Assembly: GCA_036756705.1 (NCBI GenBank)
Contig: DAIOKN010000013.1
Span: forward strand, 30,957-54,956
Source of the DNA: Clostridiales bacterium
GTDB taxonomy: Bacteria; Bacillota; Clostridia; Oscillospirales; Acutalibacteraceae
DNA length: 24,000 nt
Direction of reading: 5' to 3'
The notes beneath the pieces were generated by a model, which saw only the letters and a list, made by a program, of their open reading frames with translations, had not been told where the DNA came from and did not search any database. Of the stretch, positions 5,119-22,308 are shown piece by piece. The position numbers were made by a program, and so were the translations under genes. Each line of letters begins with the position of its first letter. Within the stretch, counting starts at the first letter, position 1.

Positions 5119-5167
5119 GGCAGCGGCATCTCCTAAGTTAAAGATATGATATGAAAATTCGCTCGGT

Positions 5168-6295: not shown

Positions 6296-6391
6296 AAGAT
6301 ACATCCTTTCTTTGATGGAAATCAAATGGGAATTTGCACAAAACGTTTCTAAAAATCAATTTCTTTTCTGGCGCAGATTTGCTTTGATAAT

Positions 6392-6418
6392 AATATAACA
6401 CGTTTTTAACCGCTTCAA
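6392..6418 (-). promoter_or_regulatory. Candidate extended -10 promoter for the minus-strand ACAD/reductase operon
   Basis: The minus strand reads TTGAAG-15 nt-(TGt)TATATT (TATATT = 6397-6392, TG = 6400-6399). The short spacer makes the -35 doubtful; the extended -10 is good. Confidence 0.3.
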
Positions 6419-6438
6419 CAATGAAATCCGGCTACAAT

Positions 6439-6458
6439 TGGAACATCCTATAGTTCCA
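6439..6458. promoter_or_regulatory. Inverted repeat TGGAAC-N8-GTTCCA in the divergent control region; candidate activator (LysR-type) site
   Basis: Perfect 6-bp arms read directly. The centre lies about 60-65 nt upstream of the TSS implied by the 6392-6400 promoter, the usual position of an LTTR recognition site. A further GTTCCAAT (revcomp of ATTGGAAC at 6437) occurs at 6731-6738 just upstream of the plus-strand ACAD. Confidence 0.3.
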
Positions 6459-6777
6459 CTTCAAATGCCAGGAGATTCCGATTGGTATTTTAAATTTGCG
6501 AATGCTATAATAAACAAAAAATCAGGCAAGATAGCGTACAGAATCAGCGTTTTAACAATGCTTTCAAGATTGTGCTGCCGTTCCCCGTTTTTCAGGAGGA
6601 AGATCCGCTCCGTTCACACCAACCGTTGAGGATGGGTTTTGTTTTTGAAAATCCTGCTCAGCGTTCAGTTTTACCTTAAATTGTCAAAACTTTCACAGTC
6701 TGCAGCCTGATTTTTTTATTGTTCCCAAAAGTTCCAATCATCCAACATCATTTTTCATATTTTCAGGAGGTAATCAC

Positions 6778-7971
6778 ATGAGCAAGCTGAATGATCAACA
6801 GTTCCAGGCGTACCTAAAGCAAATCCGTGCCTTGGCCGAGGGTCCGTTTGACGAGATGCAGAAGGAAATTGAAGTTACGAATAAGTTCCCGCAGAAGTTT
6901 TACGATCTCGCGATCCAGAATGATCTCTACCGTTTTGCTCTGCCGGAAAAATACGGCGGATTCGGACTGACCGAAAAGCAGATCCTGATGGTGCAGGAAG
7001 AATTTTCACGCGGCCCGGGCGGCATGCGCATGCACTTGCATCATGCGGCCGATCTGAACTGGCGTATTCTGGACGATTTCGGCAGTGACGAGCTGAAAGC
7101 CAAGTATATGAACAAGTTCCAGGACAAATCGGTGTTTGCAAACTTTGCCCTGACGGAAAAAACCGGCGGCACGGGCGCTGACATTCACACCACTGCGGTC
7201 AAAGACGGCGATTATTATGTCGTCAACGGTGAAAAGACTCTAATTTCACATACGGACTGCTCCGATTTCACTTATGTTATTGCCAGTACGGATCCCACTT
7301 CCGACAAAGACAGCCGCCTTTCCGCTTTCTTTGTAGACGTGCACACTCCCGGCTATGAAATCGTTCCGATGCCCCACATGATGGGCTGCCGCGGTGCGGG
7401 CCATGCCGGACTCCGCTTCACCAACATGCGTGTTCACAAGAAATATCTGTTGGGCAAGGAAGGCATGGGCCTTGAAATCGCAATGCATTCTCTCGCCGTT
7501 TCACGCGCTCACATTGCCGTCAGCAACCTGGGCATGGCGCAGAGAATGCTTGAAATGACCATTCAGCGCGCAAAAGACCGCGTCACGTTCGGCAAGCCTC
7601 TTATTAAACGCCAGGCCATCCAGCAGACCATCGCAGACATGGGGACTCAAATTCACGCTCTCCGCCTGATGATTTATGATTTTGCGGAAGACTATGATGC
7701 GGGCCGCAATATTGAAATGAAGGCCGCCATGTGCAAGCTGCACAGCATCAACACGGTTAAGATGGTTTCCGACGCCATGCTTGAAATCTTCGGCGGCATC
7801 GGCTATTTTGAAGGCTGCGAATACGGACCGACCGAGCGCATGTACCGCGACTGCCGCGCCATGTGGCTGGAGGAAGGCCCCCGCACGGTTCAGCGCCTGA
7901 CTGCGTTCCGCGGACTGGAGAAGAGCGGCGGCGTCATTGCTTACAAAGACAACAATTATCAAACCGTTTAA
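6778..7971 (+). CDS. Acyl-CoA dehydrogenase family protein (divergent paralog)
   Basis: 397-aa ORF with a CAGGAGG RBS. ACAD fold motifs are present (ALTEKTGGTGADIHTTAVKDGDYYVVNGEKTLIS). The C-terminal catalytic region reads MWLEEGPRTVQR instead of the usual (Y/F)EGT. Confidence 0.88.
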   Translation: MSKLNDQQFQAYLKQIRALAEGPFDEMQKEIEVTNKFPQKFYDLAIQNDLYRFALPEKYGGFGLTEKQILMVQEEFSRGPGGMRMHLHHAADLNWRILDDFGSDELKAKYMNKFQDKSVFANFALTEKTGGTGADIHTTAVKDGDYYVVNGEKTLISHTDCSDFTYVIASTDPTSDKDSRLSAFFVDVHTPGYEIVPMPHMMGCRGAGHAGLRFTNMRVHKKYLLGKEGMGLEIAMHSLAVSRAHIAVSNLGMAQRMLEMTIQRAKDRVTFGKPLIKRQAIQQTIADMGTQIHALRLMIYDFAEDYDAGRNIEMKAAMCKLHSINTVKMVSDAMLEIFGGIGYFEGCEYGPTERMYRDCRAMWLEEGPRTVQRLTAFRGLEKSGGVIAYKDNNYQTV

Positions 7972-8050
7972 GATCTGGAACAATGTGGGCGGCGCGCCCG
8001 CGTACCGGTGAAACGTGATTTTAGCAAATTCTTAGAAAGAAAGTGATTTC

Positions 8051-9271
8051 ATGAAGCCTTTGGAAGGGGTTAAGGTTGTTGACCTGACTACGTTTTTGGC
8101 TGCGCCGACCACTGCCCGCGTGCTCGGGGAGTGGGGCGCGGACGTGATCAAAGTCGAAGCGCCCAAGGGAGATCCGGGCCGCACCCAGGGCGCGGTGTTT
8201 GGGATGCCTTATGAAGATGAGGAAAACCTCGGCTTCGATATGTCCAACATGAACAAACGCTTCATTACCCTGAACCTGAAAAACAAGAAGGGTATGGGAG
8301 TAATGAATAAGCTCCTTGCGGATGCGGACGTCTTCATTACCAACATCCGCTCTAAATCCCTGGTAAAACTCGGATTGGATTATGAGACGCTGCGTAAAAA
8401 ATACCCCAAACTTGTCTGGGCACAGTGTCTCGGCTATGGCGAAAAGGGACCGGAAAAGGATTCCGCCGGGTTCGATGTGACCTGCTACATGGCCCGGGGC
8501 GGCGTTTTCGGGACCACCGTGAACAAAGGCGATGCCCCCATGATTCCCACCAACGGCTACGGGGATTTCCAGGTTTCCATGTGCCTTGCCTCCGGAATCA
8601 GCACCGCGCTGTTTAACCGTACCCGCACAGGCCAGGGAGACAAAGTTACCGTCAGCCTGCACCATGCAGCTGCCTTTATGCTGAGCACTGCCGTTGTTTC
8701 CGCTCAGTACGGCAACAAATACCCCAAAAGCCGTTTAGAAGTCATTTGCCCGACCAATAATGTTTACCGGACAAAAGACGACAAGCTGATCGCAATGTGT
8801 GCGCCTGAATATGACCGGGACTTCAACAAGATTATGCGTCTGATTGGCCGCGAGGATTTGGTAGACCATCCCGATTACTCAAACTGCGACCACATGAATG
8901 CCTTGCATAAAAATGCTGAGGTTGTGAAGGTCCTCGACGAGGCGATCGGAAAGTTTACCCGCGACGAAATTCTGAAAATCTTTAAAGGCAACGATGTGCC
9001 CTGCGAGGCCTGCTATGAACCGCTCGATATGTACGACGATGAACAGGTTTGGGCAAACGGGGTCATGACAAAACTCGACTGTCCGTCCGGTAAGCGCTGC
9101 ATTGCAACCGCCCCGGTCAAATTCAGTTCTTATACCGAACCGAGCTACAAGGTATCTTCCGCCCAGGGGACGGATACGGTTGAAGTGATGAAAGAACTTG
9201 GGTATGCCGACGGCGAAATCAAAGAATACCTGGCCGAAGGGGCCGTCGGTGGCAAAAAAGCGCTGAAGTAA
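8051..9271 (+). CDS. Family III CoA-transferase (CaiB/BaiF/Frc type)
   Basis: The N-terminus MKPLEGVKVVDLTTFLAAPTTARVLGEWGADVIKVEAPKGDPGR is the hallmark family III CoA-transferase opening. 406 aa is the typical size. Confidence 0.92.
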   Translation: MKPLEGVKVVDLTTFLAAPTTARVLGEWGADVIKVEAPKGDPGRTQGAVFGMPYEDEENLGFDMSNMNKRFITLNLKNKKGMGVMNKLLADADVFITNIRSKSLVKLGLDYETLRKKYPKLVWAQCLGYGEKGPEKDSAGFDVTCYMARGGVFGTTVNKGDAPMIPTNGYGDFQVSMCLASGISTALFNRTRTGQGDKVTVSLHHAAAFMLSTAVVSAQYGNKYPKSRLEVICPTNNVYRTKDDKLIAMCAPEYDRDFNKIMRLIGREDLVDHPDYSNCDHMNALHKNAEVVKVLDEAIGKFTRDEILKIFKGNDVPCEACYEPLDMYDDEQVWANGVMTKLDCPSGKRCIATAPVKFSSYTEPSYKVSSAQGTDTVEVMKELGYADGEIKEYLAEGAVGGKKALK

Positions 9272-9323
9272 GCGCTTTGAAACACAGCGCATCCAAAATT
9301 ATTTAGAAGAGGAGTAAAAGAGT

Positions 9324-10637
9324 GTGAAAGCAAAAAAATACTTGTGGGTTTTAGTAGCCGTTTATGTGGCGTATTTTACCCAGGGCATTCAAGCGCTGAT
9401 TCTAAGCCAAAACAAGATTTCGTTCTACACTCAATGGGGATTTACCGATCCGAAAGCCGGTGCGGCGGCGGTCAGCGCGGCGATTGCCTTCACCGGTCTC
9501 GGCAAGTTTGTGACCGTGTGGATCTGCGGTGAAATCTCCGACCGAATCGGTCGTAAACCGATGATTACACTTGGTGCTCTTGTGTATATCATCAGTTTCT
9601 TAGGATTGCTGATGACCACCAGCAACGTGGTTGCAGATGTCTGCGCTTTTGGTTTAGGCGCGGCGACCTCCTGCTTTGACGGAGCCAGTTACCCCGCCGT
9701 GCAGGAAAGCTGGGTGGAAGCTCCCGGCACCGCTTTGATTTTGATTAAAGGTTTCATTTCTCTGTCCGGCCTGATTTATCCGTTGCTGGTTGTTTCGCTG
9801 ACACAAGGCGGGAACTGGAAGTTCGGAATTATTATTCCGCTTGTGCTGTCGATTATTACCTTGATCCTTGCAGTGATTGCATCATATTCCTACGACGAGG
9901 AAATGAAACGCCGCAAGACCGATCCTGTAGCTAAGGCTGCCTATGAGAAAGAGCTTGCCGAAAAAAAGCATGTTCTTGACTCCGACGCCAAACGGGCGGC
10001 TGCGCGCTTTGTTTCCAAACCCCCGAAATTTGTCGTGGTTGGATGTGCCCTTTACGGTTTCATTGCGATGGCCACCATGTATTCTGCTCAGCAGTATATT
10101 AAGGCGTTCGGCAAAGTCGTTGTCGGCATGAGCGATATGAGTGCCGCCGGCCTGACCAGTGTTTACACGGCGGGTTCTTTAATCGCCGTTGTTGTCTGGG
10201 GCCTGTTCATGGCAAAATTCCGTTGGCGCACTTTGAAAGTCTTGCTGATTGATTTGAGCGGCTCTGTCCTCGGTTATGCCCTGATCTGCACCATGCGTGT
10301 TTCCTCCATGGTTTACCTCGCAAGCTTTATGATCGGCCTCTTTGCGGCCGGCGGCGCGCTTCAGTGCGGCGTTTCTCTCATGCAGGAATTCCATCCGGGC
10401 AACAAAGGCAGAAACCTCGGAATTTATTACACGTTTATGGGCCTCGCATCCTATGCGATGCCGCAGCTGCAGTCCGCGCTGATTGGTTCAAGTACCGAAG
10501 CTGCCGCTACCGTGACCAACCTTTTGGTAAATCTCTGCATGGCGGTGATTGGGCTGATCTTCATGATCTTCCTGAGTGCCAACTACAAAAAGTGGTTTGG
10601 TGTCAGCGTCATGTCCAAGAGGGGAGAAAACGAATAA
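9324..10637 (+). CDS. MFS transporter (12-TM, with central cytoplasmic loop)
   Basis: GTG start with GAGGAG 9 nt upstream. MFS motif A GEISDRIGRKP between TM2 and TM3. Two 6-TM halves separated by a charged loop. Confidence 0.85.
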   Translation: MKAKKYLWVLVAVYVAYFTQGIQALILSQNKISFYTQWGFTDPKAGAAAVSAAIAFTGLGKFVTVWICGEISDRIGRKPMITLGALVYIISFLGLLMTTSNVVADVCAFGLGAATSCFDGASYPAVQESWVEAPGTALILIKGFISLSGLIYPLLVVSLTQGGNWKFGIIIPLVLSIITLILAVIASYSYDEEMKRRKTDPVAKAAYEKELAEKKHVLDSDAKRAAARFVSKPPKFVVVGCALYGFIAMATMYSAQQYIKAFGKVVVGMSDMSAAGLTSVYTAGSLIAVVVWGLFMAKFRWRTLKVLLIDLSGSVLGYALICTMRVSSMVYLASFMIGLFAAGGALQCGVSLMQEFHPGNKGRNLGIYYTFMGLASYAMPQLQSALIGSSTEAAATVTNLLVNLCMAVIGLIFMIFLSANYKKWFGVSVMSKRGENE

Positions 10638-10759
10638 TCCCGATTGCTCCCTGTCCTTTGGAAGATTTCCGGCTTCCAGTTTCAGCAGCAGATAAAAATG
10701 TTTTGACAAGCTGCGCGGCGGCGGGTTGGAATCCATGAAAATCCGGGAAAGTGGCGAAA

Positions 10760-10799
10760 GGCATAAAATCTCAGAGAGAATTCTCTGAGATTTTATGCC
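10760..10799. repeat. 40-nt perfect palindrome GGCATAAAATCTCAGAGAGAATTCTCTCTGAGATTTTATGCC-type (an 18-bp stem with 4-nt loop as RNA)
   Basis: Read directly: GGCATAAAATCTCAGAGA GAAT TCTCTGAGATTTTATGCC. The whole 40-mer equals its own reverse complement. It lies 120 nt after the MFS stop in a ~475-nt non-coding gap and no U-tract follows on the plus strand. The palindrome itself is certain; its function is unknown. Confidence 0.9.
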
Positions 10800-11114
10800 G
10801 TCGTTGCAAGTTCAGTCTTGCTGAGAAAAAATCCCCTTGTCTTGAGCAAAGCCGAAAAATATCATTGTGCCGCTTTTTTAAGTTTAACTGGCTTGCTGCA
10901 AGACGATTTGCTTTCATATTTTTCTTCTCATTTTAAATTTCATCAATGGACCCGGCGTGTTGAGTCCCATGCTTAAAAACTTTTCTAATATTTTTTAATG
11001 GCGGCCGGATTCCGTCCGCCATTAAAAATAGAAACAAGGGAATACCGATAAAATCCAAGTTCCATCTGGCAACTTTCCTAAAAATTTTTATCTAAGAGGG
11101 AGACGATTTTACTT

Positions 11115-11988
11115 ATGTCAGAAAGAATTACAGGGCATACAGAACTCATCGGCTTGATTGCCTATCCGATTCGCCACTCAAATTCGCCTAAAATGCATAA
11201 TGAGGCGTTTGCAAAACTGGGATTGGATTATGCGTATCCTTGCATTCGAGGTAGACAATGATACGTTGGAGGACACCGTGAAGGGATTCCGCGCAATGAA
11301 AGTGCGCGGTTTCAATGTATCCATGCCGAACAAGACGGTGATTCATCAGTATTTGGATAAGCTGACCCCTGCTGCCGAAATGTGTGGGGCGGTCAACACC
11401 GTGGTGAATGATAACGGTGTGCTGACGGGAACCATTACGGACGGAATCGGTTATATGACCGCGTTAAAAGACGCCGGAATTGATATCATCGGGAAAAAGA
11501 TGACGATTGTCGGCTGCGGCGGCGCTGCGACGGCGGTAGAAGTACAGGCGGCCCTGGACGGCGTTGCCGAGATGTCTATTTTTAACGCGAATGATAAATT
11601 TTGGCCGAGAGCGGAACATAATGTTCAGACCATTAACGAAAAAACGAAATGCAAGGCGACTTTGCACAGGCTGGAAGACTTGGACGATCTGAAGTCGGAA
11701 ATTGCGTCAAGCGCGCTGTTTGCCAACGCGACATGCGTGGGGATGAAACCGCTGGAAGGGCAGACCTATATTCCGGACAAATCTTTTCTGCGCCCCGACC
11801 TGATCGTTACCGATGTTGTCTATGCGCCGACAGAGACCGCCCTTTTAAAAATGGCAAAAGAAGTCGGATGCAAAACCATGAATGGGATGGGTATGATGCT
11901 GTTCCAAGGTGCTGCCGCATTTAAAATTTGGACGGGCAGAGAAATGCCGATCGACTATATGAAAAAGGTTCTCGATATTCACTATTGA
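11115..11988 (+). pseudogene. ydiB: Quinate/shikimate dehydrogenase, YdiB-type (AroE family), interrupted by a 1-nt insertion (+1 frameshift) near 11238
   Basis: ATG 11115 (RBS GAGGGAGA) encodes [41 protein letters not shown], then hits a stop at 11259-11261. The +1 frame continues [32 protein letters not shown]...GCKTMNGMGMMLFQGAAAFKIWTGREMPIDYMKKVL to 11988. The joined protein is colinear with E. coli YdiB as I recall it (YPIRHSLSP...YMAFEVDND...VSMPNK...GCKTIDGYGMLLWQGAEQF). Confidence 0.8.
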
Positions 11989-12058
11989 CAACTGCGACAA
12001 AAGGGAAAGGGCATTAGTTCCTTTGGTAATCCCGGGTAGAAGATAGTGAAAGGATGAG

Positions 12059-12829
12059 ATGAACCGTATGAAGACAGTTACCGTAAAAAATGTCGTCCTC
12101 GGCGACGGAATTCCGAAGATTTGCATACCGGTTGTTGCGCAGACCAAAGCGGAGATTGTTGAGGAGATCAAAGGAATCAAGCAGTACCATGCCGACCTTG
12201 TCGAATGGCGCGTAGATTGGTTTCAGGATGCTGACAACATTGAAAAGATTCAGGAAGTTCTGCGGGAGCTTTCTCCCGTCGTTCAGGATTTTCCTCTTCT
12301 CTTTACCTTCCGCACAGCAAAAGAAGGCGGAAACCGGGCCATCGATCGGGAATCCTATGTCAAAATCAATCGAGCCGCTGTGGCGACCGGCGTCGTGGAT
12401 TTGATCGACGTCGAGCTGTTCCAGGGCGATGAAGTCATGAAAGAACTCGTTGAGAGCGCGCATCGGTCGGGAGTGAAAGTAGTGGCTTCCAGCCATGATT
12501 TTAAAAAGACTCCACCCAAAGACGAAATCCTCTACCGGCTGAGAAAAATGCAGGACTTGGGGGCTGATATCCCGAAGATTGCCGTGATGCCCAATTCGAA
12601 GCTGGATGTTTTGAAACTGCTAGAAGCCACTGCGGTCATGTCGGAACAATATGCCAAGGGGCCCATCATTACGATGTCCATGTCCGGCTCAGGCGTGATT
12701 TCCCGCCTGACCGGAGAACTCTTTGGTTCTGCGCTGACTTTTGGAGCAGCCCAAAAGGCTTCGGCACCCGGGCAGATCGGTGTGGAAGATCTTTATGGTG
12801 CTCTGCATCTGCTTCACGATAGCCTGTAA
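12059..12829 (+). CDS. aroD: 3-dehydroquinate dehydratase, type I
   Basis: The 256-aa ORF shows the typical type I DHQase layout (KICIPVVAQTKAEIVEEI...ADLVEWRVDWF...; PKIAVMPNS carrying the Schiff-base Lys region). An alternative start at ATG 12068 is possible. Confidence 0.9.
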   Translation: MNRMKTVTVKNVVLGDGIPKICIPVVAQTKAEIVEEIKGIKQYHADLVEWRVDWFQDADNIEKIQEVLRELSPVVQDFPLLFTFRTAKEGGNRAIDRESYVKINRAAVATGVVDLIDVELFQGDEVMKELVESAHRSGVKVVASSHDFKKTPPKDEILYRLRKMQDLGADIPKIAVMPNSKLDVLKLLEATAVMSEQYAKGPIITMSMSGSGVISRLTGELFGSALTFGAAQKASAPGQIGVEDLYGALHLLHDSL

Positions 12830-12949
12830 GGATGTTTAAAACCGGGCTTTTGCCCCCGGTCCGTTGCTGGCTCGGGGGCGGCCTTTCACGGAAGGCTGCT
12901 CTGCCAGAATATGGGACAAAAAATTTACGCAAAGGAGATATGTCCTCTG

Positions 12950-13822
12950 ATGGGAAGCTGGATTGACGGTCATACCGTTCCGTTTGGTCTGATCGGTTCG
13001 CCGGTGGGACATTCCGGTTCGCCGGCCATGTATAATTATTGTTTTGAAAAAGACGGATTAAACTGCGTCTATCTCGCGTTCGAGGTCGATCTGAAGACCC
13101 TGGACGCCGGGATGAAAGCAATTCGGGCTCTGCACTTTAAAGGAATCAATATCACCATGCCCTGCAAAAGCGCTGCCGTTCAATATGCGGATGAGTGTAC
13201 CAAAGCGGTAAGATTGATTGGCGCAACCAACTGCATGATTTGTGAAAACGGTAAATGGATTGCACACAATACCGACGGAATCGGGTATGTAAATAATTTA
13301 AAAGCACATGGAGTGGATGTGAAGGGCAAGAAAGTCACTCTGATCGGCGGCGGAGGAGCCGGCATGGCAATTTTGGTCCAGTGCGCGCTTTCCGGTGCAA
13401 AGGAAATTTCTGTTTTTAATATCCGCGACGCTTTTATTGGAAATCTGGAGGAACGCGCGGAGCTGATTAACCGCGAGGTTTCCGGCTGCACAGTCCGCGT
13501 CTTTGATCTGGCCGACCAGGAAAAGCTGAAGGCGGAGATCGCAGACAGCCAAATCTTGACCAATGCGACCCGAGTCGGCATGGCTCCGCAGGATCAGTCG
13601 ATGGCGGTCCCGGATGTCAGCGTTTTTCATAAGGGCCTTGTGGTTGCGGATACCGTATACAATCCGCGCGAAACCCGCCTGATTCGAGAAGCCAGAGCTG
13701 CCGGCTGCCTGGGCGTTGAAGGCATCGGCATGCTCGTCCGCCAGGGAGAGGCAGCTTATCAGATTTTCACATCCAAAGCCATGCCTGTAGAAGAGGTTCA
13801 GAAAAAATTTTTTGAAACGTGA
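12950..13822 (+). CDS. aroE: Shikimate/quinate dehydrogenase paralog (AroE/YdiB family)
   Basis: MGSWIDGHTVPFGLIGSPVGHSGSPAMYNYCF...YLAFEVD...INITMPCK...NTDGIGY...LIGGGGAGMAI...ILTNATRVGM. Start set to ATG 12950 (AAAGGAGA upstream) because it aligns with the N-terminus of the 11115 paralog. The track start 12911 adds 13 unsupported residues. Confidence 0.88.
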   Translation: MGSWIDGHTVPFGLIGSPVGHSGSPAMYNYCFEKDGLNCVYLAFEVDLKTLDAGMKAIRALHFKGINITMPCKSAAVQYADECTKAVRLIGATNCMICENGKWIAHNTDGIGYVNNLKAHGVDVKGKKVTLIGGGGAGMAILVQCALSGAKEISVFNIRDAFIGNLEERAELINREVSGCTVRVFDLADQEKLKAEIADSQILTNATRVGMAPQDQSMAVPDVSVFHKGLVVADTVYNPRETRLIREARAAGCLGVEGIGMLVRQGEAAYQIFTSKAMPVEEVQKKFFET

Positions 13823-14962: not shown

Positions 14963-17164
14963 TTATGGCTTGTTGGGAGTCGGCGCCCGCATTTTATCCA
15001 TCGGGATCCGCATCAACCCGAGTTTGCTGTTCCAAATATAGATTGCAAAATCCCGCTTGCAGCGGAAAGTACACTCCAAACAAGGGTTCTCATCGCAGTA
15101 ACAGTAAGCGTCAGTATCTGCAAGCGCAAATACGAGGGAATGTTTGGCAGGGGTAACATATTTCAGCTGTCCGCCGGTAAAAGTCCTTAAATAAATCCAC
15201 TCCGGCTCCGGAATACCCTCGCTGCATAGCCAGGTAATGCAAACGGCGTTTTCGTTGAATCCGCCGACAATTTTATAATCAACCTGCAGGCCGCAGCCGG
15301 CTTCCCATTCAGCCGGCTGCAATCTTTGCATGGGCGCGGAACAGCAGACTGCCTCCGCCTCCGCAGCGGGGCTGATTTGCTGGAAAACGCTGCCGCACGA
15401 CTCGCAGAGAAAAAATTGCGGCTCGCTGCAAATCGGTTTCGGTTTACTGGTTTCCCTGGCACGCCGCGTCCCAAATCTTTGATCCGGCATCTTGGATGCT
15501 CCTGTCTGAATCTGCTCGGAAGAGTTTTGCCCCATCCGCCGGCTCAATTCTTTCGCAAGCAGGTATTTTTTTACCTTTCCCGACTCTGTCATCGGGATTT
15601 GTTCGATATTTTCCACGCGTTCCGGCCATCCATACTTGGAAACCTTTGATTTGCGCAGAAAATCCGTCAGCGTTTCCAGCGTAACCGGCGCTTTTGCGTC
15701 GGATGGTACGACAAACGCGCAGATCCGTTCTCCCAAACGGGGATCCGGCATTCCGATTACGGCGGAATCCTTCACGGCGGGGCAGCGGCGCACGTTTTCA
15801 TTGATAGCGTTCGCATTTAAATTGACGCCGCCCCGGATAATCACATCCTTGATTCTTCCGATTACCCGGATCTTTTTTTCCTCATCGCGGATGCAGAGAT
15901 CCCCGCTGTGGAACCATCCCTCGTCGTCCAGAACTTTCCCTGTGGCGGCGGGGTCGTTCATATAACCGACAAAAACGTTGGGACCGCGGGACCATTCTTC
16001 TCCTTCGGAACCGTCGGGAGCGTCTTTGCCGTCTCTGCCGACAATGCGCACCTCGACTCCGTCAATCGGCCTTCCGGCGGAAGGCTTGATATCCGCCGAC
16101 CACTCGTCCGGGCGGATCAGCGTATGGGGGATGCTTTCTGTGGAGCCATAGCACTCGCAGACACGGAGCCCGTATTTGGAAGCCTCTTTGACCAGATAGG
16201 ATGGAACCGGAGCACCACCGCAGATAAACAGCCCCAGTGTCGGCATTCTTTGCGGATTCGTCTGAAAAAATTTAAGAATATCGTAGACAAAAGTCGTGGT
16301 CCCCATCGAATAGGTGCAGTGTTCACGGTTTACCAGATTCACCGCATCGGCAACGGAAAAGTGCTTTTGCAGAACGAGTTCCGCGCCGGCCAGCAGGGTG
16401 GACACAATCCCGTGTGCAAAACCTGTGGCGTGATAGAGCGGAGCCGGCATGAACATGATGTCCTCTGCGGTGATTCTGACCGCCTGATTGAATCCCTGTT
16501 CGCAAAAGATCAGGTTGTTGTGCGTCAGCATGGCGCATTTCAGCGCGCCCGCCGTGCCGGAAGTGCAAATGGCTGCCGCTACGGAATCGCTGCCGGCAGG
16601 ACCCGCACTGCGAAGCAGATCCGGATTTTTGGGGGTGTTCATTATCTCCCGAAGGGTTGGAAAAGCGGCAGGCTCCGCCGACTGAGCGTCTTCCACCTGA
16701 ATCACAGTGCAAACGTCCGGATGACGGCGGCACAGCTGTTTCGCAAGCGTGGCATATTCCACGCTTTTGTAGCGGACCGGGCAGAGATAGGCCCGGGTCC
16801 CGACCCGGCGGAAGATTTTAGACAGTTCTTCCCCTTGAAAGGAAGGGGAAAGCGGGTTTGCAACCGCACCGACTTTCAGGCAGGCAATGGTGATGATGGC
16901 AAATTCGCTCCACACCGGAAGCTGATAAGAGACCGTGTCGCCGGGGCGAATCCCGGAAGAAAGAAAATAGGCGGCCAAACGGCTGCTCTTTTCGTCCAGT
17001 TCCCTGTAGGTATACCGAAAGCCGCGGTCATCCGTGACATAGGTGCGGTTTCCGTACCGCTTGACAGTATCGTTCCAGCAATCCAACAGAGTCCGTGACG
17101 TCCAATATCCTTTTTTATAATAGAGATCTTTCTGGCGGTCGTTGATTTTTATCTTGTTTGTCAT
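14963..17164 (-). CDS. AMP-forming aryl/alicyclic-acid CoA ligase (residues ~1-545) fused to a C-terminal desulforedoxin-like CxxC...CC domain and a Cys-rich SOR-like domain (~175 aa)
   Basis: Adenylation motifs are present: TSGTAGALKCAMLTH, YGSTE, WFHSGD, GRIKDVIIRGGVNL, PMTESGKVKK. The N-terminus YYKKGYW resembles EntE/DhbE and alicyclic-acid ligases. The C-terminal FFLCESCGSVFQQISPAAEAEAVCCSAPMQRL matches the desulforedoxin pattern C-E-x-C-G-x-V...V-C-C-x-x-x-M. Confidence 0.88.
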   Translation of the reverse strand: MTNKIKINDRQKDLYYKKGYWTSRTLLDCWNDTVKRYGNRTYVTDDRGFRYTYRELDEKSSRLAAYFLSSGIRPGDTVSYQLPVWSEFAIITIACLKVGAVANPLSPSFQGEELSKIFRRVGTRAYLCPVRYKSVEYATLAKQLCRRHPDVCTVIQVEDAQSAEPAAFPTLREIMNTPKNPDLLRSAGPAGSDSVAAAICTSGTAGALKCAMLTHNNLIFCEQGFNQAVRITAEDIMFMPAPLYHATGFAHGIVSTLLAGAELVLQKHFSVADAVNLVNREHCTYSMGTTTFVYDILKFFQTNPQRMPTLGLFICGGAPVPSYLVKEASKYGLRVCECYGSTESIPHTLIRPDEWSADIKPSAGRPIDGVEVRIVGRDGKDAPDGSEGEEWSRGPNVFVGYMNDPAATGKVLDDEGWFHSGDLCIRDEEKKIRVIGRIKDVIIRGGVNLNANAINENVRRCPAVKDSAVIGMPDPRLGERICAFVVPSDAKAPVTLETLTDFLRKSKVSKYGWPERVENIEQIPMTESGKVKKYLLAKELSRRMGQNSSEQIQTGASKMPDQRFGTRRARETSKPKPICSEPQFFLCESCGSVFQQISPAAEAEAVCCSAPMQRLQPAEWEAGCGLQVDYKIVGGFNENAVCITWLCSEGIPEPEWIYLRTFTGGQLKYVTPAKHSLVFALADTDAYCYCDENPCLECTFRCKRDFAIYIWNSKLGLMRIPMDKMRAPTPNKP

Positions 17165-17244: not shown

Positions 17245-17460
17245 AGAATGATTGCTAAAACAATCTATCGTTTTGTGCTATTTATATGGAAATATATATA
17301 GGAAACAACTATGATATGCGGCGGTACCGCAAAGCTCAGAGAGAAAAATTACCATTTTTAAGTAAAAAAATTTTGCATAAATATACAAAGCCCGCTTCGC
17401 TGCGAAAGACTTGAAAAGAGGGTTCGAAATATGGGGTTGAAAGAGTCCTTTCCGGACAGA

Positions 17461-17913
17461 TTATAAAACTTCAACCCGGTCTAAGACGTATAGCAATACG
17501 CTTCCAATTGTGACCGCTTTATTGTTTTCGTCCCGAATAACGGCCCTTACGTTGCAGAGATTCCGGCCGACTTTTTCCGGGGCTGCGGTGCAAGTGAGCT
17601 TTTTTCCGCCGCCCGGGCGCAGAAATTGGAGGTTCATGGCCGCGGTGGTCACGTCGAGGCCGAGGCTGAAGCAGGAAAAGGCTGAGATCACGTCGACGAT
17701 GGTGCTGAGCGCTCCGCCATGGCAGGTGCCGTGAAGATTCAGATTCTTCTCTGACAGCACAATTTCACCTTTTGCCGTACCCTCGCCGAGATCGGTCAGG
17801 CACACATCGGAGGCGAGCGGATAACGCTCCTCCGTGTTGAATTTTTCAAAAAGGTACCGGTACCACAGTTCCTTGGTCCATGGCTTCCCATGATTTGTCT
17901 TGTCAAAGGCCAT
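17461..17913 (-). CDS. Hotdog-fold thioesterase, PaaI/EntH (4HBT class) family
   Basis: The LHGTCHGGALSTIVDV motif and ~150-aa size are typical of PaaI/YbdB-type thioesterases. Start set to ATG 17913 (MAFDK...), which has GAAGGA 8 nt upstream; the track ATG at 17922 overlaps that RBS. Confidence 0.85.
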   Translation of the reverse strand: MAFDKTNHGKPWTKELWYRYLFEKFNTEERYPLASDVCLTDLGEGTAKGEIVLSEKNLNLHGTCHGGALSTIVDVISAFSCFSLGLDVTTAAMNLQFLRPGGGKKLTCTAAPEKVGRNLCNVRAVIRDENNKAVTIGSVLLYVLDRVEVL

Positions 17914-18178
17914 TTCAATCATCCTTCGTTTGTTTTAGCGGTCCGGTTTTTAGCCGGGCTTGAAATTGCACTTTCATTTTATAAGAAGCAGTAGTGCGAA
18001 ACAAGTGGATTCACCGGATTTATATATCGGAACTCTCCGGATTTGCTTTGCAGACCATAAAAATTTCCTATCAATGCGGCGCCTGAAAAGCCATTTTACA
18101 TTGCTTTTTTTAGCCGGAATTGATCTTTTCCGTTAAAACAAGGGGAGATTTAAGAGACAATTTTAGATATTTCTACCG

Positions 18179-18207
18179 TTGACTTTAGAAATTTAAAGTG
18201 ATATATT
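18179..18207 (+). promoter_or_regulatory. Sigma-A-type promoter TTGACT-17 nt-(TGa)TATATT driving the leader and ABC operon
   Basis: -35 at 18179-18184, a 17-nt spacer, the extended -10 TG at 18199-18200 and -10 at 18202-18207, all read directly. Confidence 0.55.
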
Positions 18208-18245
18208 TAACTTAATTTAAAGTTCTGTGAAGGGAGATCCGCAAA

Positions 18246-18374
18246 ATGCACAGCGAAGTTTTCTGTAAATTTGTCCGCAATAACACCTGCGCAGCGGCGG
18301 GTCGATTTTACTATGCCTATTATTGCTTTTTTACGGGGTTAAAACATAATAGGCATGCCGCAACAGAACGATAA
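18246..18374 (+). CDS. 42-codon leader ORF rich in Tyr/Phe codons (candidate attenuation leader peptide)
   Basis: AAGGGAGA RBS 8 nt upstream of ATG 18246. The product is MHSEVFCKFVRNNTCAAAGRFYYAYYCFFTGLKHNRHAATER. Too short for the ORF track. Sits between a strong promoter and an intrinsic terminator. Confidence 0.5.
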   Translation: MHSEVFCKFVRNNTCAAAGRFYYAYYCFFTGLKHNRHAATER

Positions 18375-18407
18375 AGCCGAACACAAAACTTTTTTATTTT
18401 AAAAAAA

Positions 18408-18446
18408 GCAGTGGCTTGTCTGGAAAGGCAGGCCGCTGCTTTTTCT
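18408..18446 (+). terminator. Intrinsic terminator inside the 5' leader, 40 nt upstream of the SBP start (attenuator)
   Basis: GCAGTGGCTTGTCT GGAA AGGCAGGCCGCTGC followed by TTTTTCT: a 14-bp stem (11 Watson-Crick pairs plus 3 G-U) with a GGAA loop and an A-run upstream. Confidence 0.7.
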
Positions 18447-18485
18447 ATATTACCGTATTCAATCACAATAAGGGAGAGGGATAAC

Positions 18486-19505
18486 ATGAAAAAGAAAATC
18501 GCAGTATTGCTTCTGGCTGCTGCCACAGCCCTGTCGCTGACAGCGTGCAGCGGGGGTTCCAACGCCTCAAAATCCGGACCCTCGTCATCCGCTTCATCGG
18601 CCTCTAAAGCTTCGGCGGGGAAACACTATACGGTCGGAATTTGTCAGCTGGTGCAGCACCCCGCGCTCGACGCCGCCACCAAAGGTTTTCAAAAGGCCTT
18701 AACTGACAAGCTGGGCAGCAGAGTTACCTTCAACATGCAGAACGCGTCGGGTGATTCCCCCACCTGCGCGGTCATCTGCAATCAGTTCGTTTCTTCCAAT
18801 GTGGATCTGATCATGGCAAACGCCACGCCGGCGCTTCAGGCTGCCCAGACGGCTACCAGCAAGATCCCGATCCTCGGCACTTCCGTCACCGATTACGGCA
18901 CCGCCCTTGGCATCAGCAACTGGTCCGGCACGACCGGCAAAAACATCTCCGGCACCTCGGATCTGGCTCCCATTGAACAGCAGGCCAATCTGCTGCATGA
19001 GCTTTTTCCGAAGGCGAAGAAGGTCGGAATTATTTACTGTTCCGCAGAGCCCAACTCAAAATATCAGGACAAAGTGATCAAGAAAGCACTCACCAAGCTG
19101 GGCTACACCTGCAAGGACTACACTTTTTCCGATTCCAACGACGTTCAGTCCGTCACAAAGACGGCGGCTTCTGAAAGCGACGTAATCTATCTGCCTACGG
19201 ATAATACGGTCGCTTCCAATACGGGGATTATCAAAAACGTCTGCCTGCCTGCAAAAGTGCCGGTCATTGCCGGAGAAGAGGGCATTTGCGCCGGCTGCGG
19301 GGTTGCGACGCTTTCCATCAGCTATTACGACCTTGGCTACACAACCGGCGAAATGGCCTATGATATTCTGGTCAATCACGCGAACCCCGCCACCATGAAA
19401 GTGAAGTTTGCTCCCAAGTACACCAAAGAGTACAATCCCAGCGTTTGCAAGGCGATGGGGATCACGCTGCCCAGTGGTTTCAAGGCGATCAAAGCATCCT
19501 CCTGA
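18486..19505 (+). CDS. ABC transporter substrate-binding lipoprotein of the ABC_sub_bind family, commonly annotated as a putative tryptophan/tyrosine transport system SBP
   Basis: Start at ATG 18486 (AAGGGAGAGGG RBS). MKKKIAVLLLAAATALSLTACSGG is a signal peptide plus lipobox, followed by a Ser-rich linker. HYTVGICQLVQHPALDAATKGFQKAL and the overall pattern are characteristic of this SBP family. The track start 18411 would run through the terminator. Confidence 0.88.
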   Translation: MKKKIAVLLLAAATALSLTACSGGSNASKSGPSSSASSASKASAGKHYTVGICQLVQHPALDAATKGFQKALTDKLGSRVTFNMQNASGDSPTCAVICNQFVSSNVDLIMANATPALQAAQTATSKIPILGTSVTDYGTALGISNWSGTTGKNISGTSDLAPIEQQANLLHELFPKAKKVGIIYCSAEPNSKYQDKVIKKALTKLGYTCKDYTFSDSNDVQSVTKTAASESDVIYLPTDNTVASNTGIIKNVCLPAKVPVIAGEEGICAGCGVATLSISYYDLGYTTGEMAYDILVNHANPATMKVKFAPKYTKEYNPSVCKAMGITLPSGFKAIKASS

Positions 19506-19527
19506 CCTTTTGCCCCAATCGCCGCTT

Positions 19528-19549
19528 GCGGTCCCTGTAAGGGAGCCGC
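19528..19549 (+). other. Intercistronic hairpin between the SBP and permease genes
   Basis: GCGGTCCCT GTA AGGGA(G)CCGC: a 9-bp stem with one bulge. No clear U-tract. May stabilise the upstream SBP message; weak evidence. Confidence 0.2.
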
Positions 19550-19587
19550 TCCGGCCCTCCATTTTCAAGCATCAGAAAGGAAGCGCT

Positions 19588-20544
19588 ATGGATTTCATGA
19601 TGGCATATCTTTCATCTCTCAGCCCAATCAACCTGCTCATGGCGATTCCGGGCAATATTGCCCAGGGAATCATCTGGGGGATCATGGCTCTGGGGGTGTT
19701 AATCACATTTCGGCTGCTGAACTTTGCAGATCTGACGGTGGACGGCACTTTCGCGACGGGCGGCGCCGTGACGGTCGTGCTGATCCTCGCCGGCGCGCCG
19801 GTTCCGCTGGCCCTCGTTGCCGCGCTGGCTGCGGGGCTTCTCGCCGGTACCGTCACCGGTCTGCTGAACACCGTTTTAGGGATTCCGGAGATCCTGTCCG
19901 GGATCCTCACGCAGATTTCGCTCTGGTCTGTGAACCTGCTGATCCTGAGCGGGGCGAACAAGGCCGTCAATGTGGATGAGTATCCGCTGATTGTGACCCT
20001 GCGGAATGTAAAAAGCTCCATTGTCACCGCGCTCGTTTTTGCAGCGGTTCTCATCTGTATTCTGTACTGGTATTTCGGGACCGAGCAGGGGAGCGCCATC
20101 CGGGCCACCGGCTGCAACCCGCACATGGCCAGAGCGCAGGGCATCAATATCGATTTTATGAAGGTGCTCGCCATCAGCCTTTCCAATGGGCTGGTGGGCC
20201 TTTCCGGCGGGCTTCTGGCTCAATATCAGGGGTTTGCGGATATCAAAATGGGGCAGGGCTCCATTGTCATCGGGCTGGCCGCCGTCATCATCGGGGAAGT
20301 CTTGGGAGACGCGCTTTTGGGCAAATCTATGAATTTTGCCCTGCGTCTTGGATTTGTCGTGGTTGGCGGCGTTCTTTATTACCTTGTCATCGGCCTTGTC
20401 ATGTGGCTGAAAATGCCGACCGACCTGCTCAAGCTTCTTACGGCCGTCATTGTGGCGACATTCCTGGCGGTCCCTTATCTCAGGGCAAAATCCAAAAATT
20501 CCTTTGCACTCGCAGGCAAGAGAGGGGCGCAGAACCATGCTTAA
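19588..20544 (+). CDS. ABC transporter permease (branched-chain-type inner membrane component partnered with the ABC_sub_bind SBP)
   Basis: Start at ATG 19588 (GAAAGGAAG RBS). The 318-aa polytopic protein begins MDFMMAYLSSLSPINLLMAIPGNIAQGIIWGIMALGVL. Its stop overlaps the ATPase start (ATGCTTAA), indicating translational coupling. Confidence 0.88.
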   Translation: MDFMMAYLSSLSPINLLMAIPGNIAQGIIWGIMALGVLITFRLLNFADLTVDGTFATGGAVTVVLILAGAPVPLALVAALAAGLLAGTVTGLLNTVLGIPEILSGILTQISLWSVNLLILSGANKAVNVDEYPLIVTLRNVKSSIVTALVFAAVLICILYWYFGTEQGSAIRATGCNPHMARAQGINIDFMKVLAISLSNGLVGLSGGLLAQYQGFADIKMGQGSIVIGLAAVIIGEVLGDALLGKSMNFALRLGFVVVGGVLYYLVIGLVMWLKMPTDLLKLLTAVIVATFLAVPYLRAKSKNSFALAGKRGAQNHA

Positions 20545-21331
20545 ACTTTCCGGAATATGCAAAACATTCAATATCGGCACCGTCAATGAAAAAGCCGCTC
20601 TCTGCGGGATTGACCTCAATTTGAAAGAGGGCGATTTCGTGACGGTGATCGGCGGCAACGGCGCGGGAAAATCGACCATGCTAAACGCAATCGCAGGGGT
20701 TTGGCCCGTAGATAAAGGAACCATCTCGATTGACGGCACCGATGTGACTTCCCTGCCGGAATACAAGCGCGCACCGTATATCGGCAGGGTCTTCCAGGAC
20801 CCGATGATGGGAACCGCCGCCAATATGGAAATTGCAGAAAACCTGGCGCTGGCCATGCGCCGGGGGAACAGGCGAACGGTGCGCTGGGGAGTTACAAAAT
20901 CGGAGTGCAAGCATTACCGCGAAGCGCTGGAAAAGCTCGGCCTTGGCCTGGAAGACCGCATGACTTCCAAAGTGGGGCTTCTTTCCGGGGGCCAGCGGCA
21001 GGCCCTCACGCTGCTGATGGCGACGCTCCAGAAGCCGAAGCTTCTGCTTTTAGACGAACACACCGCGGCACTGGACCCCGCAACCGCCGCGAAAGTTCTG
21101 GAACTTTCCGATCAGTTTGTCGCGGAAAACAACCTGACTGCCATGATGATCACCCACAACATGACGGATGCCATCCGCCATGGGAACCGGCTGCTGATGA
21201 TGAACGCCGGAAAAATTATTCTGGATATTTCAGGGGAGGAGAAGAAAAAGCTCAAAAAAGCCGACCTTCTGCAAAAATTTGCCGAACTGGCCGGCGTGCA
21301 GGAAGAAACGGACGAGGTCCTTCTGTCGTGA
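20537..21331 (+). CDS. ABC transporter ATP-binding protein
   Basis: Walker A GGNGAGKST, signature LSGGQRQAL, Walker B LLLLDE and an H-loop ITHN. Start at ATG 20537 (MLKLSGICKTF). Confidence 0.92.
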   Translation: MLKLSGICKTFNIGTVNEKAALCGIDLNLKEGDFVTVIGGNGAGKSTMLNAIAGVWPVDKGTISIDGTDVTSLPEYKRAPYIGRVFQDPMMGTAANMEIAENLALAMRRGNRRTVRWGVTKSECKHYREALEKLGLGLEDRMTSKVGLLSGGQRQALTLLMATLQKPKLLLLDEHTAALDPATAAKVLELSDQFVAENNLTAMMITHNMTDAIRHGNRLLMMNAGKIILDISGEEKKKLKKADLLQKFAELAGVQEETDEVLLS

Positions 21332-21411
21332 AAGTGAGATACGGAACAGAACAGCAGACCCAGAACGTAGGCGATCAGCAAAATCACCACAAGATTTCCT
21401 GAACTGCGAAC

Positions 21412-22308
21412 TTATTGAAGCCCCATTTTAGTGAGCAATGCTCCCACGGCTTCCTTTGCGGCTGCCGAAAGGGACTGCCCGGGAAGACGCTCTGCGTGAC
21501 TTCCTCCAATCACGCGCTGATAAGCCGCTTCTTTGCAGGCCAGAAACATCGGCGTGCTGTACTGATAAACATCCATAGCTTCGGTCATCTTCTTTGCGCT
21601 TTTCACCGTGGCATCCATATCTCCGCGGTGAAAGCTCTGCCAGGTATTTACCGTAAATTCCGGGGAAAAGTTTGCGGTGGCATTGATAAATCCGTCAATG
21701 CCGAATGGTAGCGTGGCCAGGACGTGGTTTTCATAGGCAGCAAATACCATGAAATCCGGTTTCGACTTTTTGATGGTCAGCATGCTGCGGATATGTTCGG
21801 TGTCTGATACGGTTTCCTTGATACCGACGATATTCTCATGTTTCAAAGCAAGCCGGCGAACCAGCTCGGTCTGGCAGTCAAAGCCGGTAAGATCAGGAAA
21901 ATTGTAAATCAGAATGGGTAAAGAAGTGGAAGCCACGACCTCATCGTAGTAGGCTTCTACCATCTCCTCCGAATAGATGTTGAAGTAAGGGATAATTAAC
22001 AAAATACCATCGACACGGGCCTCTTCGGCTGTCGCGATTAGCTCCCGGACGTTGGAGAGACAAGTGTCGCCCACGCCGACAATGACATGCGCCCGATGGT
22101 TCACATAAGCGGTCATCTTACGGATGAATTCTTTTCTCTCTTTCAGAGTCAGAACACTGAACTCTCCGCTTGTTCCCAGATAAGAAAGCCCATTCACACC
22201 CTTTTCTATCAAAAAATCAGCCTGCTTTTTGTTTGCTTCCCAGTCCAAGTTTCCTTTTTCATCGAATATTGTGATGACGGGTGGATTGACTCCTGATAAA
22301 TTTATCAT
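21412..22308 (-). CDS. DHDPS/N-acetylneuraminate lyase-family class I aldolase or dehydratase (DapA-like; substrate unknown)
   Basis: GTSGEF motif, IYNFP Tyr and the Schiff-base Lys context IVGIKE. AGGAGG RBS 7 nt upstream. Co-transcribed with the IclR regulator, so more likely a keto-deoxy-acid catabolic enzyme than biosynthetic DapA (inference). Confidence 0.85.
   Translation of the reverse strand: MINLSGVNPPVITIFDEKGNLDWEANKKQADFLIEKGVNGLSYLGTSGEFSVLTLKERKEFIRKMTAYVNHRAHVIVGVGDTCLSNVRELIATAEEARVDGILLIIPYFNIYSEEMVEAYYDEVVASTSLPILIYNFPDLTGFDCQTELVRRLALKHENIVGIKETVSDTEHIRSMLTIKKSKPDFMVFAAYENHVLATLPFGIDGFINATANFSPEFTVNTWQSFHRGDMDATVKSAKKMTEAMDVYQYSTPMFLACKEAAYQRVIGGSHAERLPGQSLSAAAKEAVGALLTKMGLQ

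Follow-up and report, generated by a model that had tools for sequence, protein, structure and literature searches.

Upstream of an ATP-binding cassette (ABC) importer operon in a Caproiciproducens-like Clostridiales genome, we identified a leader element whose organization corresponds to that of a ribosome-mediated transcription attenuator of the trpL/pheL type. The element lies in a stretch of 24,000 nucleotides (nt) of contig DAIOKN010000013.1, which was analyzed as a whole and is referred to as the window in the following. It combines a promoter, a short open reading frame (ORF) with a dense run of Phe and Tyr codons, a set of competing RNA strands and an intrinsic terminator located directly 5' of the genes for a substrate-binding protein (SBP), a permease and an ATPase (Table 1). 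We consider it likely that, in this leader, the availability of charged tRNA-Phe and tRNA-Tyr sets the read-through into the importer genes. On the evidence described below, the element is a real and previously undescribed family that makes use of a known mechanism, probably sensing the charging of Phe-tRNA and Tyr-tRNA.

A preliminary description of this DNA had proposed the attenuation logic of trp and pheA for the leader, and the promoter, the Shine-Dalgarno (SD) sequence, the 42-codon ORF and the aromatic run that it listed are all present (Table 1). The promoter matches at 10 of 12 positions, carries in addition a TG extension, is the top-ranked promoter-like site between 17400 and 21600 and is kept in all homologous leaders; transcription would start near 18214. 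The run places seven Phe/Tyr codons within nine codons, and none of 2000 shuffles of the ORF reached its density of seven per ten codons. The fold of the leader has a z-score of -4.65 when compared with dinucleotide shuffles. At the downstream end, the region 18390-18450 folds into the terminator with -30.9 kcal/mol, the stem being lengthened to 18401-18446 by pairing of an A-run with a U-run. While the stem and T-run of the terminator are as first described, the distance to the SBP start codon at 18477 had been given as 40 nt and is about 31-37 nt. No promoter fits into this gap of roughly 30 nt in a promoter scan of 17400-21600, and transcription of the ABC operon must therefore pass through the terminator.

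The SBP is TrpX-like, yet against the TrpX equivalog NF041285 of NCBIfam it reaches 239 bits where membership requires 390, which places it in a clade paralogous to TrpX. Its closest named relative, from Caproiciproducens sp. NJN-50, whose genome CP035283 carries the leader at about 766 kb, is 80% identical, and the order SBP, permease, ATPase is the same in homologous loci.

Leaders homologous to that of the window, here referred to as family A, were sought upstream of SBP orthologs by a genome scan with the SBP, which yielded 80 loci, and by exact-protein look-ups of closer SBP clusters. In the genome scan the leader was common to only L002, L003 and L007, and weakly to L001 and L038, while the look-ups revealed it at L161-L163 (including two complete Caproiciproducens genomes), L164, L165/L166, L167, L168, L171, L173, L178 and L183; L174-L177 and L179 have no leader. 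Scanning metagenome contigs with the SBP returned relatives of at most 67% identity and no new family-A leader. In total, 13 homologous leaders were recovered 5' of SBP orthologs with 66-85% identity.

The alignment of these leaders shows that the small ORF is maintained as a reading frame. In 12 of the 13, a GGAGG-like SD sequence and an ATG occupy the same alignment column, and although the sequence in between is hypervariable, the ATG and the invariant CGA-TTT are spaced by 45, 54, 57 or 63 nt, each divisible by three. The frame is thus kept despite insertions and deletions of 3-18 nt. Past the aromatic run, indels of 1 and 5 nt appear, and the position of the stop codon shifts, from segment 2 in some leaders to the following block in others. 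A constraint on the frame that ends after the run is the pattern to be expected of a leader peptide, for which the regulatory codons and the position of the stop matter. In several loci, gene callers already call an ORF of 33-47 amino acids at the position of the leader as a hypothetical protein.

The aromatic codons themselves are conserved as well. The TTT codons at 18306 and at 18327 are retained in 12 of the 13 leaders, and eight of the 12 in-frame family-A leaders contain 5-8 Phe/Tyr per ten codons, a density with P <= 0.0005 when compared with shuffled ORFs. Over a total of 21 leaders, Phe and Tyr codons number 162 in frame, compared to 60 and 103 in the other two frames. Substitutions within the run are synonymous changes between TAT and TAC or swaps between Tyr and Phe, and L178 carries an in-frame 9-nt duplication that adds a further Y-A-Y. 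Part of the run falls into the unpaired loop of the 1:2 helix, so that RNA pairing does not explain its conservation. A profile built from eight leader peptides and searched against 5.8 billion proteins recovered 27 clusters of 33-47 amino acids, all of which feature AGRF followed by a Tyr/Phe run, with at least five Phe/Tyr in ten codons in 26 of them; outside the run, their N- and C-terminal parts are unconserved. None of the 27 clusters contains a Trp residue, and Trp codons are likewise lacking from the leaders. The protein collection lacks the exact peptide of the window. Its nearest cluster, at 98% identity, comes from a strain that has a Tyr at the position of Cys27 of the window peptide. 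The comparison of orthologous leaders envisaged in the preliminary description thus bears out the conserved ORF in 12 of the 13 leaders and its aromatic run for most members; L002, L003, L171, L168 and L167 have lost Tyr codons.

At the RNA level, four nested helices, namely P1, P1b, the 1:2 helix and the terminator, are supported by RNAalifold (11 leaders) as well as by pair counting (13 leaders). Taken together, 85.8% of their cells are paired, compared to 38-45% in slid controls, 14 pairs are changed on both sides, and the covariation score was reached by none of 500 shuffles. P1 joins the last SD base and the following nucleotides to the A-G-R codons, and P1b joins the start codon and codons 2-3 to codons ~14-16; 89.7% and 83.1% of their cells are paired, respectively, each with three pairs changed on both sides. 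For the terminator, these values are 95.6% and five pairs. In the 1:2 helix, ATGCCTATTAT at 18313-18323 and ATAATAGGCAT at 18346-18356 are exact reverse complements of each other, in agreement with the perfect complementarity noted earlier. The bare helix has an energy of -10.3 kcal/mol, and it shows a compensatory change from GCC/GGC to GUC/GAC. Since P1/P1b would shut over the start codon once its 3' strand has been made, we infer that only a ribosome loaded co-transcriptionally translates the leader. Together with the U-run that follows it, the same hairpin may act as a pause hairpin.

The antiterminator would be formed by segment 2' and the 5' arm of the terminator, segment 3. Of the 11 positions between AGGCATGCCGC (18351-18361) and GTGGCTTGTCT (18411-18421), 10 pair, two of them as G-U, as had been described, and the remaining one is a U.U mismatch. 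Removal of segment 1 makes 2':3 the minimum free energy structure of the window leader (-15.8 kcal/mol) and of 10 of the 13 homologs, so that the pairing is competitive in the sense of the proposed folding check. Across the homologs, 80% of its cells are paired, compared to 23-53% in slid controls. Folds of truncated transcripts revealed strand 2b, which overlaps the stop codon, as a second antiterminator strand; it pairs with UGGCUUGUC of segment 3 in 79.8% of cells among the homologous leaders, where its covariation is no better than that of shuffles, and the helix is weaker (-6.0 kcal/mol for 2b:3 versus -11.6 kcal/mol for 2':3). The identity of the antiterminator strand is a prediction. 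With a ribosome placed at the stop codon, the truncated folds leave segment 3 without any partner. The stop codon of the window leader had been placed about 10 nt past segment 2 and indeed lies 11 nt past 2'. With the sole exception of L168, the homologs have it within segment 2, directly past 2' or inside 2b.

Combining these elements, the leader could operate as follows. RNA synthesis would begin near 18214, and a ribosome would load at the SD sequence and AUG ahead of the synthesis of the P1/P1b 3' strand. With Phe- and Tyr-tRNA plentiful, it would reach the UAA at 18372 and cover 2' and 2b, leaving segment 3 free to form the 3:4 terminator, and the transcript would end at about 18446. If Phe or Tyr were scarce, the ribosome would stall at codons 21-29 (18306-18332) and cover segment 1; 2' would then pair with segment 3, the terminator would be blocked, and the SBP, permease and ATPase genes would be transcribed. 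Finally, without translation P1/P1b would close over the start codon, the 1:2 helix would form, and the terminator should mostly win. The ribosome positions and footprints, the timing of the competing helices, any pausing and the physiological signal in this scheme are inferred.

Several observations weigh against this scheme or narrow it. The 2':3 pairing shows no covariation beyond that of shuffles among the homologous leaders, and its central pair 168-230 becomes A.C in six leaders through a U-to-C change in segment 3, for which segment 4 compensates in five of the six. Of the three helices of the attenuation logic in which covariation had been anticipated, 1:2 and 3:4 hence covary, while 2:3 is complementary without covarying; frame, codons and the first two helices support the logic. 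Furthermore, equilibrium folds of the full-length leader with the ribosome footprint masked never displace the terminator. As the terminator always wins at equilibrium, the switch must be kinetic, like in the classical systems, which renders such folds uninformative and is the reason why truncated transcripts were folded instead. At the level of the peptide, VRAQAGRF and NRHA overlap paired RNA, and conservation of the peptide alone is therefore not independent evidence. In L002, L003 and L171, a 1-nt deletion right after CGA-TTT shifts the frame (L002 2784-2888): these leaders read RFMLS(I/M)(I/F)(T/A)F with a UAG stop inside segment 2, retain the RNA helices, and possess two to three Phe codons (two flanking segment 1, one more in L171) and at most one Tyr codon. 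L168 has only three aromatic codons in its run, and L167 (135-370) has lost both the SD sequence and the frame. These Tyr-poor variants, which may be decaying or differently regulated, weaken the claim that Tyr codons are essential. Two regulatory codons suffice in Escherichia coli trpL, so a response to Phe alone would be possible in the frameshifted subclade. A +1-frame ORF in L002 (…IYAVYHYF…) was considered as a rescue of the Tyr run and was rejected: it lacks an SD sequence, would start at an ATG within or at the -10 box, and does not occur in L003.

A further point concerns the pace of transcription. Runaway transcription is commonly assumed for Firmicutes and is usually given as the reason why they prefer T-boxes. 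The RNA polymerase of Bacillus subtilis outruns the ribosomes (PMC13323073). If this held true here, a pause would be needed for the proposed switch, which likewise counts against it. The NusG pause motif of B. subtilis, TTNTTT, is located at -11 to -6 from the pause site (PMC11602163), and TTTTTT at 18330-18335, which also encodes Phe-Phe, and at 18390-18395 fits this motif. By analogy, and speculatively, NusG-dependent pauses might occur just before segment 2 and just before the terminator if this kind of pausing worked as in B. subtilis.

Independent support comes from more distant orthologs, which Phe/Tyr-rich leaders also precede. A second leader family, family B, was found at L023, L040, L044, L055, L070, L073 and L085 in rumen and gut Clostridiales and Christensenellales, with SBP orthologs of 62-70% identity; L159 and L038 are related to it in style. 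Its members combine an SD sequence with a Phe/Tyr-rich ORF of 39-57 codons that contains a conserved hairpin (GCGCAGUGCGAUUUA…CUGCGCUUUU), followed by a U-run, a small hairpin and a terminator. The aromatic run lies 3' of the in-ORF hairpin (for example RYFFFAFFF or RFSFYAYFACF). The strand CCCAUCUG, at or just before the stop codon, complements the loop and 3' arm of the terminator, CGGAUGGG, with one compensatory pair in L040, and the stop codon is likewise placed at the presumed antiterminator strand.

Upstream of the 76%-identical SBP ortholog L180, and also of L181 and L182, lies a T-box, which in L180 (907-1158) scores 110 bits against Rfam. Its specifier loop reads GAA-UUC-A, and its T-box sequence UGGU matches the A73 discriminator base. 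Under the reading rules for T-boxes (partly general knowledge; TBDB, doi 10.1101/2020.06.17.157016), the codon follows GAA and is itself followed by a purine, a 3'-C is preferred, and the N pairs with the discriminator base. These features indicate that the L180 T-box is specific for tRNA-Phe (UUC). Such a specificity is in keeping with a signal based on the charging of an aromatic tRNA and thereby supports the attenuator reading of the window leader. As predicted from their sequences, two or three unrelated readers of aromatic tRNA charging precede the same transporter clade. The SBP family had been said to be usually T-box controlled; this does not apply to the present clade, where a T-box-like motif occurs 5' of the SBP gene at four of about 150 orthologous loci and L180 alone reached the Rfam threshold. 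L015, L043 and L056, taken up as candidate T-box loci by a motif search with a regular expression, were discarded because none passed Rfam.

Other explanations of the leader have to be weighed against the same data. The nascent peptide AGRF-S/Y-Y-A-Y-Y-Y-F-F could itself, from within the exit tunnel and possibly aided by a free small molecule, arrest the ribosome in the manner of TnaC (with Trp) and SpeFL (with ornithine), so that the same terminator switch would be thrown irrespective of codon supply. AGRF and the aromatic run are invariant or nearly so in the 27 clusters, and Tyr/Phe swaps are conservative at the level of the peptide too; the window leader resembles TnaC and SpeFL in being a short conserved peptide 5' of genes for the same metabolite class, with ribosome stalling as the proposed signal. 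However, the peptides differ in how many aromatic residues they carry and in which order (YYAYYCFF, SYAYFTFF, RYAYYAYYAYF, SYAYFAAE), a 9-nt duplication is tolerated, and the frameshifted clade retains the RNA switch with an unrelated peptide. AGRF, in addition, is encoded by the covarying 3' strand of P1. In TnaC and SpeFL, the spacing is fixed, arrest takes place at the stop codon or close to it, and termination is Rho-dependent; in the present family, 12 to 26 codons separate motif and stop, and the switch is read out by an intrinsic terminator. An importer induced by its own free substrate would also fit the Phe T-box of the ortholog less well. We therefore regard a purely peptide-driven arrest as unlikely. 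Slightly better placed, though still doubtful, is the broader notion that AGRF-SYAYYYFF serves as an arrest sequence for an aromatic ligand, or for Phe/Tyr-tRNA shortage combined with peptide context, or else that pausing enforces a tight coupling of transcription and translation in Clostridia; in the case of coupling, the in-ORF hairpin with its U-run and the TTTTTT of the Phe-Phe codons would act as a synchronizer.

It is also conceivable that the leader senses translation capacity in general, any slowdown of the first ribosome by global starvation or ribosome-targeting antibiotics giving read-through without a specific role for the aromatic codons. Attenuators of the ermC or vmlR type do exist in Firmicutes (PMC2965389, PMC9226507), and four to five of the 13 leaders have few aromatic codons. 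The strong aromatic enrichment, upheld through independent substitutions and in two leader families, the target genes, which encode an amino-acid-type importer and not a resistance factor, and the Phe T-box of the ortholog make this account quite improbable. A shade less probable again is an RNA that binds a ligand or protein (a riboswitch or a TRAP- or PyrR-like target), which would stabilize P1/1:2 or the antiterminator and render the ORF incidental. Such a model would account for the covariation of P1, P1b and 1:2 and for the 24-nt conserved block GCCAUGACAGAACGAUAAAGCC, which is explained by neither coding nor the nested helices; the block, however, holds the stop codon and complements the terminator arm, and this accounts for its conservation. 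Against it, Rfam yields no matching family even at E <= 10, P1/P1b has a hypervariable apical part, unlike an aptamer, the in-ORF indels are all multiples of three with SD sequence and ATG kept in 12 of the 13 leaders, and aromatic codons are conserved in an unpaired loop. Least probable of all, in our estimation, is that 18214-18446 constitutes an independent small gene for a 42-residue protein or a small RNA with its own promoter and terminator, the ABC operon being served by unregulated leak-through. While gene callers annotate the ORF as a hypothetical protein and the terminator is very strong, the ORF is always found directly 5' of the same SBP gene amid differing neighbors, the SBP gene has no promoter of its own behind the terminator, and the peptide is unconserved apart from its aromatic run.

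Taking the Phe/Tyr attenuator as the preferred explanation, we compared it with known systems. At the gathering threshold, Rfam recognizes no known family in the 24-kb window, including the T-box RF00230, and at E <= 10 the region 17900-18520 returned only noise (HIV_FE, BTnc060) and no leader family (Phe_leader, Trp_leader, Lactococcus leu/phe leader). A GGUGGNACCGCG-like T-box motif does not occur in the window either, in line with the earlier statement that no T-box is present. Like E. coli pheL-pheA and trpL-trpEDCBA, the leader has an SD sequence and a short ORF, a cluster of presumably sensed codons overlapping segment 1 of a proposed 1:2/2:3/3:4 system, a stop codon placed such that a terminating ribosome would block the predicted antiterminator, and an intrinsic terminator just 5' of the structural genes. 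In contrast to these, it has no sequence or Rfam similarity to them, occurs in Clostridia rather than Proteobacteria, targets an ABC importer instead of a biosynthetic operon, mixes Tyr and Phe codons, is longer (42 codons) and carries an extra covarying hairpin over the end of the SD sequence and the start codon. Precedents for "regular" leader peptides taking the place of T-boxes in Firmicutes, by the same logic, are a His leader 5' of hisS paralogs and hisZ of bacilli (PMC2965389) and, in the ilv-leu operon of Staphylococcus aureus, a Leu-rich attenuator peptide (PMC5794164); they differ in amino acid, in their genes (tRNA synthetase paralogs or biosynthesis versus an importer), in class (Bacilli versus Clostridia) and in sequence. 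The Streptococcus suis trpXYZ genes are under the control of a Trp T-box (PMC9382623). With this T-box and that of L180, the window leader has in common the transporter family and, as proposed, the uncharged aromatic tRNA as signal and the choice between terminator and antiterminator as output; while a T-box senses the tRNA directly by RNA-RNA contacts, the leader would read charging indirectly through the speed of the ribosome.

Leader-peptide control is considered rare in Firmicutes, where T-boxes are the norm. Tyr/Phe leader peptides, whether in Clostridia or for this transporter, were not found described in the literature searched, the coverage of which was incomplete. As far as we are aware, leader peptides with Tyr codons have not been described, and this one would be the first, as well as one of few to control an importer and not a biosynthetic operon. 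Such an attenuator had been called unusual for a Clostridia-like genome; it is undescribed in the literature found, but it belongs to a sizeable, so far unannotated family in anaerobic Clostridia rather than being a one-off, with at least 27 peptide clusters plus the second family in Caproiciproducens, other Acutalibacteraceae, Oscillospiraceae, rumen Clostridiales and Christensenellales. The finding also yields a functional prediction for a widespread and poorly annotated clade of ABC transporters labeled "putative Trp/Tyr transporter": Phe and Tyr codons, the lack of Trp codons and the Phe T-box of the ortholog point to uptake of Phe and Tyr, and not Trp, as the probable function. With a T-box upstream of the transporter in one lineage and leader peptides in other lineages, the clade presents a clean natural exchange of tRNA-charging sensors. 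As ribosome-mediated attenuation requires the ribosome to match the pace of RNA polymerase, the family could moreover serve as a test bed for coupling and pausing in Clostridia, and small ORFs now listed as "hypothetical protein" can be re-annotated.

Table 1. Positions of the leader elements and importer genes in the window and of family-B leaders in their own loci.
Feature	Sequence	Positions	Strand	Details
Sigma-70-type promoter	Window	18179-18207	+	-35 TTGACT (18179-18184), 17-nt spacer, TG (18199-18200), -10 TATATT (18202-18207)
Shine-Dalgarno sequence GGGAG of leader ORF	Window	18232-18236	+	9 nt 5' of ATG; read from sequence
Hairpin P1/P1b	Window	18236-18303	+	Encloses last SD base and start codon; apical part variable, coding
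P1	Window	18236-18242 / 18297-18303	+	GAUCCGC x GCGGGUC; RNAalifold, pair counts
P1b	Window	18247-18253 / 18287-18293	+	UGCACAG x CUGCGCA; RNAalifold, pair counts
Leader ORF	Window	18246-18374	+	42 codons, ATG start; translation MHSEVFCKFVRNNTCAAAGRFYYAYYCFFTGLKHNRHAATER
Candidate regulatory codons 21-29	Window	18306-18332	+	F-Y-Y-A-Y-Y-C-F-F (TTT TAC TAT GCC TAT TAT TGC TTT TTT)
Segment 1	Window	18311-18323	+	5' arm of 1:2 (anti-antiterminator), inside Tyr codons
Segment 2	Window	18346-18358	+	3' arm of 1:2; overlaps segment 2'
Segment 2'	Window	18351-18361	+	AGGCAUGCCGC; alternative partner is terminator 5' arm
Conserved block	Window	18362-18380	+	ACAGAACGAUAAAGCC, with leader stop UAA
Strand 2b	Window	18370-18379	+	GAUAA(A)GCCG; weaker second complement of terminator 5' arm
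Leader stop codon	Window	18372-18374	+	TAA/UAA; 11 nt past segment 2', within strand 2b
Intrinsic terminator (segments 3/4)	Window	18401-18446	+	Stem 18408-18421 / 18426-18439, loop GGAA, T-run from 18440
Substrate-binding protein (SBP)	Window	18477-19505	+	PF04392 ABC_sub_bind, E 1e-58; TrpX-like
Permease	Window	19588-20544	+	BPD_transp_2, 318 amino acids
ATP-binding protein	Window	20537-21331	+	ABC_tran, 264 amino acids
Family-B leader	L023	2691-2861		
Family-B leader	L040	2749-2910		
Family-B leader	L055	196-366		
Family-B leader	L070	2785-2904		
Family-B leader	L073	1943-2116		
Family-B leader	L085	21-170		

Beyond the leader itself, the upstream regions of the SBP orthologs share a promoter feature. 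Between the -35 box TTGAC(T) and the -10 box, a spacer element (C)TTTAAAG is conserved, which in the window reads TTTAAAG at 18192-18198 (spacer region 18185-18201). Of 145 distinct regions 5' of orthologous SBP genes, 26 show the arrangement TTGA…TTTAAAG…TAnnnT, amongst them L001, L017, L032, L053, L074, L084, L110, L115, L116, L121, L124 and L131, and also at Lachnospiraceae loci without a leader ORF or terminator. TTTAAAG could be the operator of a shared transcription factor or a promoter-specific element. A palindromic operator ACTTTA-N6-TAAAGT was set aside, since only TTTAAAG is conserved. At L179, whose SBP ortholog is 77% identical, the region 1080-1200 lacks a leader ORF and shows a terminator-like hairpin, GGTCGCTCGTCTGGTGAGGCGAGCGACC, right after a promoter, with no clear U-tract.

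Upstream of the leader, the window encodes an AMP-dependent ligase (14963-17164, minus strand) of 733 amino acids, compared to 561 in the syntenic Caproiciproducens loci. The extra ~200 C-terminal residues are Cys-rich and give a weak, below-threshold match to a desulfoferrodoxin N-terminal domain (E 0.0018, 18.3 bits versus a cut-off of 23), and the protein may be a domain fusion. Further upstream, in the region 3106-13822, which was viewed through its ORF translations only, lie genes for an enoate-reductase-like flavoprotein, two acyl-CoA dehydrogenases, a family III CoA-transferase, a major facilitator superfamily (MFS) transporter, two shikimate/quinate dehydrogenase paralogs, a type I dehydroquinase, and LysR and IclR regulators. 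Judged by this gene content, the region looks like a catabolic island for aromatic or alicyclic acids.

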